Shown one piece after another: positions 3,571 through 7,329 of a stretch of DNA of 30,754 nt (its first letter is position 1; each line of letters opens with the position of its first letter). The DNA lies in the NCBI GenBank assembly GCA_945901835.1, contig CAMDMH010000001.1:1-30754 (forward strand), written 5' to 3'. A program made the position numbers and the translations under genes. Source of the stretch: Devosia equisanguinis (GTDB lineage: Bacteria > Pseudomonadota > Alphaproteobacteria > Rhizobiales > Hyphomicrobiaceae). The notes beneath the pieces are model-generated. The model ran no database searches and was not told the DNA's origin. It was given only the letters and a program-made list of their open reading frames with translations.

Positions 3571-4749
3571 ATGGCCAGTGTCCCGGCGAAGACGCTAATG
3601 CAGTATCTCGACAAGGCCTCCGGCGCGCTGCGCGACATGGGGCTACTGCCGGACAAGATCGAGCCGTCACCGATCAATGCTCTGCTCGACAAGATCGCCG
3701 ATATCGACAAGGACAAGGCCGCGATGATCGCCCGCACGCTCGCGCAGGGCGAAGTATTCAACGAGGTCGTGCGCGAACAGACCTCGAAAATGGAGATCGG
3801 CGAGCGCTACCAGCTTATCACCAACGGGTTCAACTCGATCCGCGACGACAGCAAGCGGCTGGTCGATCAGGTGGCGGACGGCAAGATCGACATGCTGGAG
3901 CGCGGCACCAACATCTGGATGAAGCTGGCGCGCGGCGATATCGCGGACCGGTTCGACAAAATCCGCGGGGTGTATCTGGCCGTCACGAAAGAGACCAAGA
4001 ACCAGATCGAGCGCGAGGCGAAGATTCTCGACGCCTATCGCGATTATCGCGGCGCGCTGAAGCACGCCGAGGTGATGGCGCTCGAGATCCTGAAGAAGGC
4101 CGAAGGCAAGCTCGACGCCGCCAAGAAGCTGCTCGGGGAGGCCTCGACCGCCGTCGGCAGCTTCTCCGGCACGGAGCCGGCGGAACGCGCCAAGCTCGAA
4201 CTCGCGCGGGACGAGGAGCTGCGCCGGACGCAAGAGGAGGAGAAGCGCTACCAGATCGCCAAGGACCTCTCCGACAACATGACGATCGGATACAATACGT
4301 CAGAAGTCATCATGGCGCGGCTGATGCAGCTCACTTCGGCGAAGGAGCGAGTCTACAGTCAGGCGGTGTCGTTCTTCTCGACCAACGACAGCGTGCTGAC
4401 CGCGCTCAAGGCGTCGTTCACGGGCATGTTCGGGCTGCACGAGTCGACGAAGACGCTCGATGCCATGAAAGAAGGCATGTCGAAGAGCCTCGAGGATCTC
4501 GCCAAGATCGGCGACAAGGTTCAGGAGGCCGCGGTCCGCGCCGGCTACGGTCCGACGGTTCGTGCAGAGGCGGTCAAGATGCTCGTGGAGAGCGTCGTCG
4601 GCTTCCAGGAGCGCTCGCGCGAGATCATCGCGGAGGTGCGCAAGCTCTCGACGCAGAACTCTTCGGAAATCCGAGAGGCGGTTGAGGCCGGCAAGAAGCG
4701 CGTCGCCCGGTTGGCCGCTTCGATCGAGGCGCTCCCAGGACCGGGTTGA
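3571..4749 (+). CDS. Soluble all-helical coiled-coil protein, divergent TelA/KlaB (toxic anion resistance)-like
   Basis: 392 aa; GGAG upstream of the ATG; no signal peptide or TM segment; DIADRFDKI...IEREAKILDAY and GPTVRAEAVKMLVESV segments echo TelA blocks (by eye). Confidence 0.85.
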   Translation: MASVPAKTLMQYLDKASGALRDMGLLPDKIEPSPINALLDKIADIDKDKAAMIARTLAQGEVFNEVVREQTSKMEIGERYQLITNGFNSIRDDSKRLVDQVADGKIDMLERGTNIWMKLARGDIADRFDKIRGVYLAVTKETKNQIEREAKILDAYRDYRGALKHAEVMALEILKKAEGKLDAAKKLLGEASTAVGSFSGTEPAERAKLELARDEELRRTQEEEKRYQIAKDLSDNMTIGYNTSEVIMARLMQLTSAKERVYSQAVSFFSTNDSVLTALKASFTGMFGLHESTKTLDAMKEGMSKSLEDLAKIGDKVQEAAVRAGYGPTVRAEAVKMLVESVVGFQERSREIIAEVRKLSTQNSSEIREAVEAGKKRVARLAASIEALPGPG

Positions 4750-4767
4750 TCGTCCAATCCCCCTAAG

Positions 4768-4788
4768 CCCTCCCCCCACCGGGGAGGG
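4768..4788. repeat. REP-like hairpin (CCCTCCCC/GGGGAGGG family)
   Basis: CCCTCCCC-CCACC-GGGGAGGG perfect 8-bp stem in a CCCCCTAAGCCCTCCCC...GGGGAGGGGGAC context in the 4750-4815 gap. Confidence 0.65.
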
Positions 4789-4815
4789 GGACGCGTATTG
4801 CTTGGATGATCGCGA

Positions 4816-5757
4816 ATGCCAGAAGCCTCCGTTGCGGAAAAGCCGCACAAGCTCGACGACGTCATGATCGCGATGGACGTGGTCGACACGATCCGTCATC
4901 GCGACGATCTCGTGCGGCGGGAGCTCAACGACGAGGCGCGCGAAGCGGAGCTGATCGAGCGGCTGCGCGAGATCTACCGTCAGCAGGGCATCGAAGTTTC
5001 GGACAAGGTGCTGGCCGAAGGTGTGAAGGCGCTGAAGGAAAGCCGGTTCACCTACACGCCGAAGCCACCGTCGCTGAAGCGCACGCTGTTCGAGATGTGG
5101 GCCGGCCGCAGGCGCTACGGGCCCTTCGCGGCAGCCCTTGCCGGCATCGTCGTGTTCGCGTTCGGATATCACTACTTCAACGTGACGCGGCCGGCACAGC
5201 TTGCCGAAGAACAGGCGCGGATCGAAATCAGCGAGACATTGCCGCGATCCATCCGGCAGGCGCACGCGGATATCGTCAAGGCAGCCATCGACGCCAGCGC
5301 CAAGCCGCGCGCGGATCAGCTTCTCGCCGATGGTGAGAAAGCCATCCGCGACATGGATCGCGGGGCCGCGACCAAGATCTCGACCGAGATGAAGCGCCTG
5401 GCCGATGAGGTCGCGGCGGAGTACACGCTGACCATCGTGTCGCGCCCCGGCGAGACGACGGGAGTGTGGCGCAGACCGCCGAAGGGGGCGACACAGCGCA
5501 ACTATTACATCATCGTCGAGGCGCTCGCGCCCGATGGCCGCAAACTGCGCCTGCCCATCCGCAACGAAGAGAACGGCGAGACGGACCTCGTCGACCGTTT
5601 CGGCGTGCGCGTGCCGCAGCCCACTTTCGACACCGTCGCGGCGGACAAACGCGACGACGGCATCGTCCAACGCAACCGCTACGGCGTGAAGCGCCGGGGC
5701 ACGGTCACGGTCGATTACCTCATGCCATTCGACGGCGGCAGGATTACGAAATGGTGA
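4816..5757 (+). CDS. Single-pass membrane protein, DUF6384-like
   Basis: 313 aa; LDDVMIAMDVVDTIRH...LIERLREIYRQQGIEV...ALKESRFTYTP N-terminus recalled from DUF6384; one hydrophobic helix (GPFAAALAGIVVFAFGYHYF); beta-rich C-terminus. Confidence 0.8.
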   Translation: MPEASVAEKPHKLDDVMIAMDVVDTIRHRDDLVRRELNDEAREAELIERLREIYRQQGIEVSDKVLAEGVKALKESRFTYTPKPPSLKRTLFEMWAGRRRYGPFAAALAGIVVFAFGYHYFNVTRPAQLAEEQARIEISETLPRSIRQAHADIVKAAIDASAKPRADQLLADGEKAIRDMDRGAATKISTEMKRLADEVAAEYTLTIVSRPGETTGVWRRPPKGATQRNYYIIVEALAPDGRKLRLPIRNEENGETDLVDRFGVRVPQPTFDTVAADKRDDGIVQRNRYGVKRRGTVTVDYLMPFDGGRITKW

Positions 5758-5789
5758 GGCAGTAGGCAGTAGGCAGTAGGCAGTAGGCA
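5758..5789 (+). repeat. Heptamer tandem repeat (GGCAGTA)x4 plus GGCA
   Basis: Read directly; begins at the base after the TGA of 4816..5757. Confidence 0.95.
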
Positions 5790-5835
5790 ACCAATCGCAC
5801 GACGCAGACGGCGCGCAACGGAAATCAAGCCAAGT

Positions 5836-7329
5836 ATGTGGACCGGACGGCAGACACTCGGCGAGATCGAGGGCACGCTTTCGAAGCTGCGCCGCGACGA
5901 AGGCCAACTCGACGGCGCGCTGGCGTCGGCGACGGGGCAGGCGGAGCAGCTGCGCGGCGAGCGCGCCAATGCGCTGCGGGAGATGGCGCGCATCAAGCTC
6001 GACGAGATGGCGGCCGGGCGGCTGGTGCGCAATCTGGACGCCGCGGAGCAGCGCGCCGGGCAGATCCTAGAAAACCGCCGGCTGCGCCTCGAAGCCCTCA
6101 ACGCGCAGCAGAAGACGCTCGGCGATGAGGTCGCGCAAGCGGAAGCAGAGCGCCACAGCGCGTCTGCGGCGGTCGAGGAGGCGCTGGAAGCCGTCGACGA
6201 AATCCGCGCGCGGGCGGAGGCCGACGTCAAGACTGTCGCTGCGTGGATAGACGCGAAGAAAGCGCACGAGTTTGCCGATCAGATTGCCGTCGAGGCCGAG
6301 AAAAAGGCCGCGCAGTCGGAAGCGGAACTCGGAGCAAAGAAGAAGCCCTACGATAACGATCCGTTGTTTGCCTACCTGTGGAACGCGAAGTTCGGCACGA
6401 GCCAGTATGCGGCGGGGAACCTCACACGCCTCGTCGACCGGATGGTGGCCGACTTCATCGGGTATCAGGACTCGCGTGCCAGCTACGCGATGCTGACCCA
6501 GATCCAGCTTCGGCTGCGGGAGCATGCCAATCGCCAACGCAACGCAGCCGACGACGTACGTATGACGATCGCTGCGCTCGAGCGTCAGGCGATGGTCGAA
6601 GCGGGCATCGAGCCGAAGGAGCGCGTGCTCGCCGAGGCACGGCACAAGCTCGCCGCGGCGGACGGCAATGCGGAACGGCGGCGGGGCCTGCTCAAAGACG
6701 TCGAGGCCAAGCGGACCGCGATGCTGGGTGGGGGCAACGATCCTGCATACTCGGAAGCAATGCAGACCATCGTCGAAGGGGATTCGCAGGACGACATCGG
6801 CACGCTCTACGAGGAAGCGAAACGTACGCGAACGCCGACCGACGACATGATCGTGCGGCGGATCGGCGGGCTCGACGAACGTCTGGCCGAGATCGACAAG
6901 GAAACCGCCGCGCTGCGCAAGGCGGCGCGCGAGATGGCCGGCCGCAGAACGGAAGTCGAGCAGGTTCGAGAGCGTTTCCGGAACTCCGGCTTCGATCATC
7001 CCAATGCGACGTTCCGCAACGAAAGCGAGATCGGCGCCGTGCTCGGGCAGATCCTGGAAGGCGCCGTCCGCAGCGGCATCCTATGGGACCTCCTCCGCGG
7101 GGGCTTCGGAACCCGGCCTGGGCGTGGACGGCCCGACTTCGGCGCGCCGACGTTCCCGTTTCCGTTCCCGATGCCGGGCGGGGGTGAAGGTGCGCGCGGT
7201 GGCGAATGGCGCCAACCCGGCACGCGCGGCGGGTGGACGCCGCCGTTCCCCTCGGGGGGCGGTGGTGGCGGTGGCGGAAACGACAACGACAGCGGCGGAG
7301 GCGGCTTTTCGACCGGCGGCTCTTTCTAG
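5836..7329 (+). CDS. Long coiled-coil hypothetical protein with Pro/Gly-rich C-terminal tail
   Basis: 497 aa; A/E/R/Q-rich heptads; central PYDNDPLFAYLWNAKFGT block; tail ends GGGFSTGGSF; no Walker A motif, no signal peptide. Confidence 0.85.
   Translation: MWTGRQTLGEIEGTLSKLRRDEGQLDGALASATGQAEQLRGERANALREMARIKLDEMAAGRLVRNLDAAEQRAGQILENRRLRLEALNAQQKTLGDEVAQAEAERHSASAAVEEALEAVDEIRARAEADVKTVAAWIDAKKAHEFADQIAVEAEKKAAQSEAELGAKKKPYDNDPLFAYLWNAKFGTSQYAAGNLTRLVDRMVADFIGYQDSRASYAMLTQIQLRLREHANRQRNAADDVRMTIAALERQAMVEAGIEPKERVLAEARHKLAAADGNAERRRGLLKDVEAKRTAMLGGGNDPAYSEAMQTIVEGDSQDDIGTLYEEAKRTRTPTDDMIVRRIGGLDERLAEIDKETAALRKAAREMAGRRTEVEQVRERFRNSGFDHPNATFRNESEIGAVLGQILEGAVRSGILWDLLRGGFGTRPGRGRPDFGAPTFPFPFPMPGGGEGARGGEWRQPGTRGGWTPPFPSGGGGGGGGNDNDSGGGGFSTGGSF

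Follow-up and report, generated by a model that had tools for sequence, protein, structure and literature searches.

A co-inherited three-gene cassette containing a DUF6384 protein and its possible role at the bacterial inner membrane

We analysed a 30,754-nucleotide stretch of DNA, hereafter the window (Devosia equisanguinis, assembly GCA_945901835.1, contig CAMDMH010000001.1, positions 1–30,754 of the forward strand), and within it three consecutive genes at positions 3571–7329, here called genes 1, 2 and 3, or the trio. The genes form a self-contained cassette that is inherited as a unit in variable genomic contexts. We propose, with a probability of roughly 0.5, that this widespread operon encodes a non-enzymatic assembly at the inner membrane with a role in protecting or remodelling the envelope. 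A first-pass annotation of the same DNA, made from the sequence alone, had singled the locus out as a candidate undescribed system, and in this respect it has held up: we found no description in the literature, genes 1 and 3 belong to no family, and gene 2 belongs to a family of the DUF type. The window has a G+C content of about 64% and comes from a metagenome-assembled genome (MAG) that is 70% complete and divided into 691 contigs; judged from the names of its closest relatives, the genome falls in the Hyphomicrobiaceae. The RNA runs of the same study are from a freshwater metagenome, and none of the public RNA runs listed contains this stretch.

A self-contained, co-inherited cassette

All three genes lie on the forward strand. 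Gene 1 (3571–4749) encodes a soluble protein of 392 residues, predicted to be an all-helical elongated bundle; gene 2 (4816–5757) encodes a bitopic DUF6384 membrane protein of 313 residues; and gene 3 (5836–7329) encodes a coiled-coil protein of 497 residues with a glycine-rich tail. The spacers measure 66 bp between genes 1 and 2 and 78 bp between genes 2 and 3, and the trio is divergent from an upstream gene for a zinc-type medium-chain dehydrogenase (MDR), exactly as the first-pass annotation had described. None of the three proteins matched an enzyme family in Pfam, NCBIfam or PADLOC, in agreement with its statement that enzymatic motifs are lacking, and no terminator-like site was found on the forward strand within the trio.

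We sampled 101 genomes of the window's family and found gene 1 in 32 of them, the DUF6384 gene in 32 and gene 3 in 31. Essentially the same genomes were involved each time, with the genes adjacent, in the same order and on the same strand. A scan of one genome per species of GTDB yielded at least 590 loci, the best 80 of which we examined. Gene order and strand were kept in every locus with enough flanking DNA (79/79), and many of the junctions overlap by 1–8 bp. These results show that the trio is a self-contained, co-inherited cassette whose genes are often translationally coupled, and they uphold the earlier suggestion that the three genes constitute a unit. A gene 1 homologue with 32% identity still adjoins a DUF6384 gene (516 residues), in this case divergently oriented. 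Named carriers include several Microvirga species, Mesorhizobium robiniae, Nitratireductor aestuarii, Hoeflea, Reyranella, Prosthecomicrobium hirschii, Phreatobacter, Pleomorphomonas, Micropepsaceae and Dongiaceae.

The surroundings of the cassette vary. Clustering of flanking genes across related loci revealed no recurrent gene family, and the immediate neighbours in 21 diverse loci encode dehydrogenases, transporters and central-metabolism proteins as well as two transposases, with no defence genes among them in Pfam and PADLOC scans. In a tree of gene 1, taxa with several members mostly cluster together, and the window's family falls into two clades with a deep split between them, one forming the deepest branch of the tree. 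Together with a patchy distribution, these two clades point to many losses and some transfer. Trio loci identical or nearly identical to alphaproteobacterial ones were also seen in MAGs labelled Bacteroidota, Flavobacteriaceae, Acidobacteriota, Hydrogenophaga and Devosia equisanguinis (L038, L059–L061, L064, L075, L047, L034), which probably reflects errors of binning or labelling and not transfer across phyla.

The cassette is also carried by plasmids and by a phage. Homologues of gene 1 occur on 11 plasmid records, mostly megaplasmids; seven of these are megaplasmids from Pseudomonas, among them P. aeruginosa plasmids of 335–398 kb, and the remainder comprise the megaplasmid of Methylorubrum extorquens AM1 and replicons of Microvirga, Bradyrhizobium and Rhizobium leguminosarum. 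On the 398-kb P. aeruginosa plasmid CP017294, the gene following the gene 1 homologue is annotated as DUF6384, an assignment that our own search confirmed (E 1e-43), and in hhalign the product of the gene after that gives a probability of 99.65% (E 5e-25) against the gene 3 profile. Among 50,697 phage records the trio was found only in the Yersinia jumbo phage phiR1-37 (262 kb), in which g190 shares 40% identity with gene 1 across 96% of its length, g191 encodes a DUF6384 protein (E 4.7e-26), and g192 is the positional equivalent of gene 3. Relatives of gene 1 with 43–44% identity were also noted near the ends of four further IMG/VR contigs predicted to be viral (L192–L194 and L196; 25–72 kb), which may be the host flanks of prophages.

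The phage counterparts are given as uncharacterised in a published RNA-seq study of phiR1-37 (PMC4848604), and its Table S2 lists normalised counts in early, middle and late infection of 32.7k, 39.0k and 42.0k for g190, 13.9k, 14.6k and 16.0k for g191, and 16.3k, 20.9k and 24.4k for g192. The three genes were classed as not temporally regulated and their products are not among the virion proteins (PMC4848604). Their counts are among the highest of the range g187–g293, with about 50 for the adjacent g189 and about 6k for g193 (PMC4848604). These counts, which come from a distant homologue, are the sole experimental evidence that we found for joint expression of the trio.

A patchy, horizontally mobile and self-contained cassette that turns up in variable contexts and on megaplasmids, and whose gene 1 tree contains two deep clades inside a single bacterial family, could be read as an anti-phage defence or abortive-infection system acting at the membrane, a role that the first-pass annotation had listed among its candidates. 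Several findings speak against it. Searches of PADLOC-DB 2.0 gave no matches (best E 0.05–0.06), even the commonest PADLOC family matches only two of 41 immediate neighbours, and in Pfam the neighbours match metabolic and housekeeping families. The trio is devoid of effector domains, nuclease and NTPase domains included; gene 1, with 67–75% identity between families, is far more conserved than is usual for defence genes; and the module is present in a lytic jumbo phage, where its expression is strong as soon as infection begins. We therefore consider a defence function very unlikely.

Three proteins and the TelA question

Gene 1 is very strongly conserved. Its product has no hydrophobic segment in hydropathy plots and no family match in Pfam, NCBIfam, PADLOC or PHROGs, and its AlphaFold2 model is all-helical, with two helices of 70–90 residues (predicted local distance difference test score, pLDDT, 76). 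Identity ranges from 62 to 94% inside the window's family and from 67 to 75% to other alphaproteobacterial families. The gene 1 family comprises 584 clusters at 50% identity. The database contains at least 8000 relatives, of which the 120 top-ranked ones are all at least 80% identical, and our alignment of 44 diverse members reaches down to 27% identity. Searches of PDB sequences with profiles of genes 1, 2 and 3 returned noise only, and searches of the ESM Atlas returned only the query proteins' own unnamed clusters. Two unusual relatives were noted. In one genome of the window's family (L031, G333:C15:116809-117944) the gene 1 orthologue is split by TGA stops next to a DUF6384 gene and a gene 3 that look intact, which may reflect decay or an assembly error. 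On a metagenome contig (L033), a 30%-identical relative (P0375) is followed by a GT4 glycosyltransferase gene instead of DUF6384, so the most distant members of this family may act in other contexts.

The first-pass annotation had described the trio as TelA-based, and a true but highly diverged TelA-family module for envelope or toxic-anion stress, with DUF6384 conjecturally in the role of the membrane partner (XpaC, KlaC), is one reading of the locus. TelA, KlaB, YaaN and YceH (PF05816) are similar to gene 1 in size (about 380–390 residues) and in their all-helical elongated build. When the gene 1 model is compared with Swiss-Prot structures, a TelA-like protein ranks first (E 5e-4), TelA, KlaB or YceH account for seven of the 30 best fold matches, and KlaB aligns over residues 18–391 of gene 1 with a template modelling (TM) score of 0.39–0.40. 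The operons of TelA systems, such as klaA-klaB-klaC in the kilA operon of RK2 and xpaC-yaaN in B. subtilis, are likewise small, include a membrane protein and contain no enzymatic domain.

The sequence and profile tests of this relationship were, however, all negative. None of 44 gene 1 family members matched the TelA Pfam model PF05816 at E ≤ 0.1, and the same model recovered no gene 1 orthologue across 61 genomes of the family, one of which has a genuine TelA as a separate gene, at a distance of about 170 kb from the trio. Comparison of the 44-sequence gene 1 profile in hhalign with 27 aligned TelA proteins, drawn from 36 genomes that carry TelA, gave a probability of 0.27% (E 0.22), and comparison with the single true TelA gave 0.23%. 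In the reciprocal direction, five genomes known to carry TelA were searched with the gene 1 profile, and their TelA genes were missed even at E ≤ 10. Every TM score in the Swiss-Prot comparison was below 0.5, and no solved TelA structure was found for comparison. Against the PDB, the best neighbours of gene 1 are instead components of ClyA-family toxins, with Foldseek E ≥ 7e-3, TM scores ≤ 0.32 and VIA Z ≤ 10.1; by chance, long helical bundles can attain fold scores as high as those of gene 1. Nor do genes 2 and 3 contain an XpaC, KlaA/KlaC or Ter partner domain in Pfam, and none recurs in the flanks. The partner of gene 1 is a DUF6384 bitopic protein, not XpaC or KlaC, and TelA systems have no counterpart of the third coiled-coil subunit of about 500 residues with its glycine-rich tail. 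We therefore regard descent from TelA as doubtful. The predicted models weakly support calling gene 1 TelA-shaped, in the sense of a resemblance of folds and not of family membership. We know of no established mechanism for TelA itself.

The same PDB neighbours (Hbl-B, MakA, AhlB/C, SmhB, XaxA and PaxB) raise the idea of a tripartite alpha-pore-forming toxin of the ClyA type, or of another membrane-attacking complex, since ClyA-family toxins (Hbl, Nhe, Ahl, Smh, Mak, Xax) are also encoded in three-gene operons and consist of elongated helical bundles like that of gene 1. Yet these matches have the same low scores, and only one of the three trio proteins resembles the fold, weakly. Gene 1 has no hydrophobic head, beta-tongue, signal peptide or other secretion signal, and genes 2 and 3 are not ClyA-like. 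Moreover, the carriers are free-living alphaproteobacteria of freshwater and soil, and sequence conservation is very high. A toxin is thus the least credible of the functions that we considered.

Gene 2 is a full-length member of DUF6384 (PF19911), as the first-pass annotation had suspected, matching model positions 3–308 of 308 with E 3e-119 and 398 bits (cut-off 25). No paper in the literature searched refers to DUF6384, a search on TelA and coiled coils likewise gave nothing of relevance, and the family has no assigned function. The protein has a single hydrophobic segment at about residues 103–125 with the sequence RRR on its N-terminal side. Its AlphaFold2 model (mean pLDDT 86.7) shows a helical N-terminal head, a long helix (98–156) that includes both the transmembrane segment and a stalk, a three-helix bundle extending to residue 200, and a beta-rich domain (203–313). 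By the positive-inside rule, the protein would have its N-terminus inside, with a cytoplasmic head (residues 11–95, motif LDDxMxAMDVVDTxR ... RFxYxP) and with the helical stalk and three-helix bundle (126–200) and the beta-rich domain in the periplasm. Hydropathy and the predicted model thus fit the single-pass architecture with a cytoplasmic helical head and an exported beta-rich domain that had been read from the sequence initially. Across 27 aligned, diverse orthologues, conservation peaks in the head, whose mean pairwise identity of 59% exceeds that of the beta domain (49%), the stalk (36%) and the transmembrane segment (23%). Fold searches with gene 2 were dominated by the generic three-helix bundle. 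DUF6384 proteins range from 313 to 516 residues, and in one locus (L002, genome G159) the extra length is an insert inside the periplasmic helical stalk; such variation in length hints that the stalk serves as a spacer.

Gene 3, like gene 1, encodes a protein with no hydrophobic segment and no family match in Pfam, NCBIfam, PADLOC or PHROG, and its coiled coil with a glycine-rich tail agrees with the original description of two of the proteins as soluble helical coiled-coil proteins. An alignment of 26 orthologues reveals fast-evolving coiled coils (27–31% identity) and then an invariant central block at residues 168–230 (KPYxxDPLFxYLW...ARxNY..L.EIP.RL..H, 56% identity), which is followed by the motifs TPTPxDD and, after it, RRxELE..FR..GYD. 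Towards the C-terminus there is a glycine-rich, glycine-zipper-like amphipathic helix at about residues 400–425, then a glycine-rich linker whose length varies among orthologues, and at the extreme C-terminus a conserved tip, GGF(R/K/S)TGGxF (67% identity). In the window's genome the GGFxTGGxF tail occurs in gene 3 alone, the sole look-alike being the GGM tail of GroEL.

Tails rich in glycine, arginine and phenylalanine, such as that of gene 3, are of a kind able to bind nucleic acids. In combination with the richness in coiled coils and with the presence of the trio in prosthecate and budding lineages (Hyphomicrobiaceae, Prosthecomicrobium), on megaplasmids and in a 262-kb phage, this could indicate a cytoskeleton-like or replicon-positioning scaffold involved in cell polarity, in budding or in anchoring very large replicons to the membrane. 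However, the trio contains no DNA-binding or NTPase domain, most copies are chromosomal and lie in unrelated contexts away from par and rep genes, and within morphologically similar genera the trio occurs only patchily. We judge such a scaffold to be unlikely.

Intergenic elements and the upstream region

The spacer between genes 1 and 2 can form a long RNA hairpin on the forward strand (4745–4813; −31.8 kcal/mol, z −2.78), with the core CCCUCCCC/GGGGAGGG, which pairs bases just upstream of the gene 2 ATG. In phiR1-37, read counts fall about 2.4-fold at the g190/g191 junction (PMC4848604), and an annotated Rho-independent terminator at this equivalent junction coincides with the drop after g190. 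The hairpin and the drop in phage counts would be consistent with gene 1 being made in excess of its partners.

The spacer between genes 2 and 3 contains a perfect tandem repeat of the heptamer AGGCAGT in 4.7 copies (5757–5789, forward strand). The repeat directly follows the gene 2 stop codon and gives TAG in all three frames. In a relative of the same genus (L016) the gap between genes 2 and 3 is only 9 bp, which marks the repeat as a recent insertion or expansion in the window's lineage.

Upstream of gene 1, the motif CTTGC[AG]-N17-CCACAT[GC]T was identified by k-mer scanning and inspection in several separate clades, 35–65 nt before the start codon. Its core, CTTGC[AG]-N17-CCACAT, precedes gene 1 in 18 of 80 loci (within the range L050–L075 and in L091), and 18 of the 22 occurrences in 930 kb (1.86 Mb on both strands) fall in the 150 nt before gene 1; the motif is absent or mis-spaced in the window and in many other loci. 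In five motif-bearing genomes we compared it with the upstream regions of heat-shock genes, which contain CTTGCG-N16-CCTATAT (dnaK), CTTGAC-N17-CCTAAAT (groES) and, for one hsp20 gene, CTTGAC-N17-CCACAT or CCAAAT. The consensus sequences quoted for RpoH1 and RpoH2 are CTTGAA-N15-16-CCTATAT and CTTGCC-N15-16-CCTATCT, respectively (PMC4843759). The likeness of the motif to these promoters and consensus sequences suggests heat-shock-type control of the trio, and the cassette may possibly, on this weak indication, be linked to stress through an RpoH-type promoter. In the window, the upstream region is the 244-bp divergent intergenic region (3327–3570, forward strand), in which the hexamers CTTGCG (3521–3526) and CCACAT (3550–3555) and a Shine-Dalgarno sequence, AGGAG (3560–3564), precede gene 1. 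On its other side lies the MDR gene (2334–3326, reverse strand), whose product begins MMKAAV and matches ADH_N and ADH_zinc_N.

Just 3′ of the trio there is an open reading frame of 219 residues (7441–8100, forward strand) that overlaps the start of the longest frame of a TctC-family gene (8024–9115). It has no Pfam match and is not conserved beside the trio elsewhere.

A proposed role at the inner membrane and its significance

In the assembly that we propose, the DUF6384 protein would sit in the inner membrane with its N-terminus inside, its conserved cytoplasmic head offering a docking platform and its helical stalk and beta domain extending into the periplasm, so linking the assembly to that compartment. 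Gene 1, the elongated TelA/ClyA-shaped bundle, would be the most abundant and most constrained subunit and would probably make a lattice or coat beneath the membrane. The long coiled coil of gene 3 would tether or cross-link the assembly by way of its central block, amphipathic helix, glycine linker and GGFxTGGxF tip, the combination of a flexible linker with a docking tip being comparable to the disordered linker and docking tip of SSB. Candidate interaction surfaces can be picked out by regional identity: the gene 2 head, which far exceeds the transmembrane segment, and the gene 3 central block and tip, which likewise exceed the coiled coils. Under stress, the assembly would probably protect the cytoplasmic membrane or envelope, mechanically or physiologically, or remodel it; a chromosome, a megaplasmid and a large lytic phage could all benefit equally from such a function.

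Non-enzymatic helical or coiled-coil proteins that are abundant, linked to stress and recruited to the membrane by small partners are known from PspA/IM30 with PspB/C and from the SPFH/NfeD pairs, and PspA is among the weak structural neighbours of gene 1 (Z 8.7). The trio contains no PspA_IM30, SPFH or NfeD domain, the gene 1 and gene 3 alignments giving no match at E ≤ 0.1. It also differs from the PspA and SPFH systems in that its anchor has a large periplasmic domain and in that it comprises three subunits of different architectures. A bolder version of our proposal is that the trio is an unrecognised kind of trans-envelope structural machine, composed of a DUF6384 anchor, a gene 1 coat and a gene 3 tether, which bacteria, megaplasmids and a jumbo phage would all use in the same way to stabilise or reshape the inner membrane and which is unrelated by descent to TelA, PspA/ESCRT-III and SPFH; this version we put forward only tentatively.

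Several observations weigh against the proposed membrane assembly. The trio occurs in 20 of the 51 genera of the window's family (about 30% of genomes) and in only 2 of the 301 genomes of an even class-wide sample, a patchiness which indicates that the module is dispensable. The topology of gene 2 is derived from hydropathy, the positive-inside rule and a model of the monomer, and its beta domain (203–313) has no recognisable structural relative in fold searches. For the phage, the hhalign comparison of g192 with gene 3 gave a probability of 4%, which does not demonstrate homology between the two. With respect to a link with stress, consensus sequences for EcfG, sigma-54, sigma-32 and sigma-70 are not enriched upstream of gene 1 in 88 loci. 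Alphaproteobacterial sigma-70 promoters resemble the CTTGC[AG]-N17-CCACAT motif, and the two kinds of promoter cannot be distinguished here. In the rest of one complete genome the exact motif gave six matches versus four in the control, that is, no enrichment from which a regulon could be defined. Finally, the hexamers in the window are 23 nt apart and not 17, so that the window's own promoter is not established.

Gene 1 is conserved between families at a level more usual for housekeeping proteins. Should its fold resemblance to TelA prove real, results on the trio would bear on the long-unexplained TelA-type proteins. The existence of culturable and genetically tractable carriers, together with a laboratory phage, makes the trio directly testable. 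Its intact conservation across hundreds of species, its presence on megaplasmids and its very strong transcription in a jumbo phage together point to an important, transferable and so far unstudied function at the membrane.

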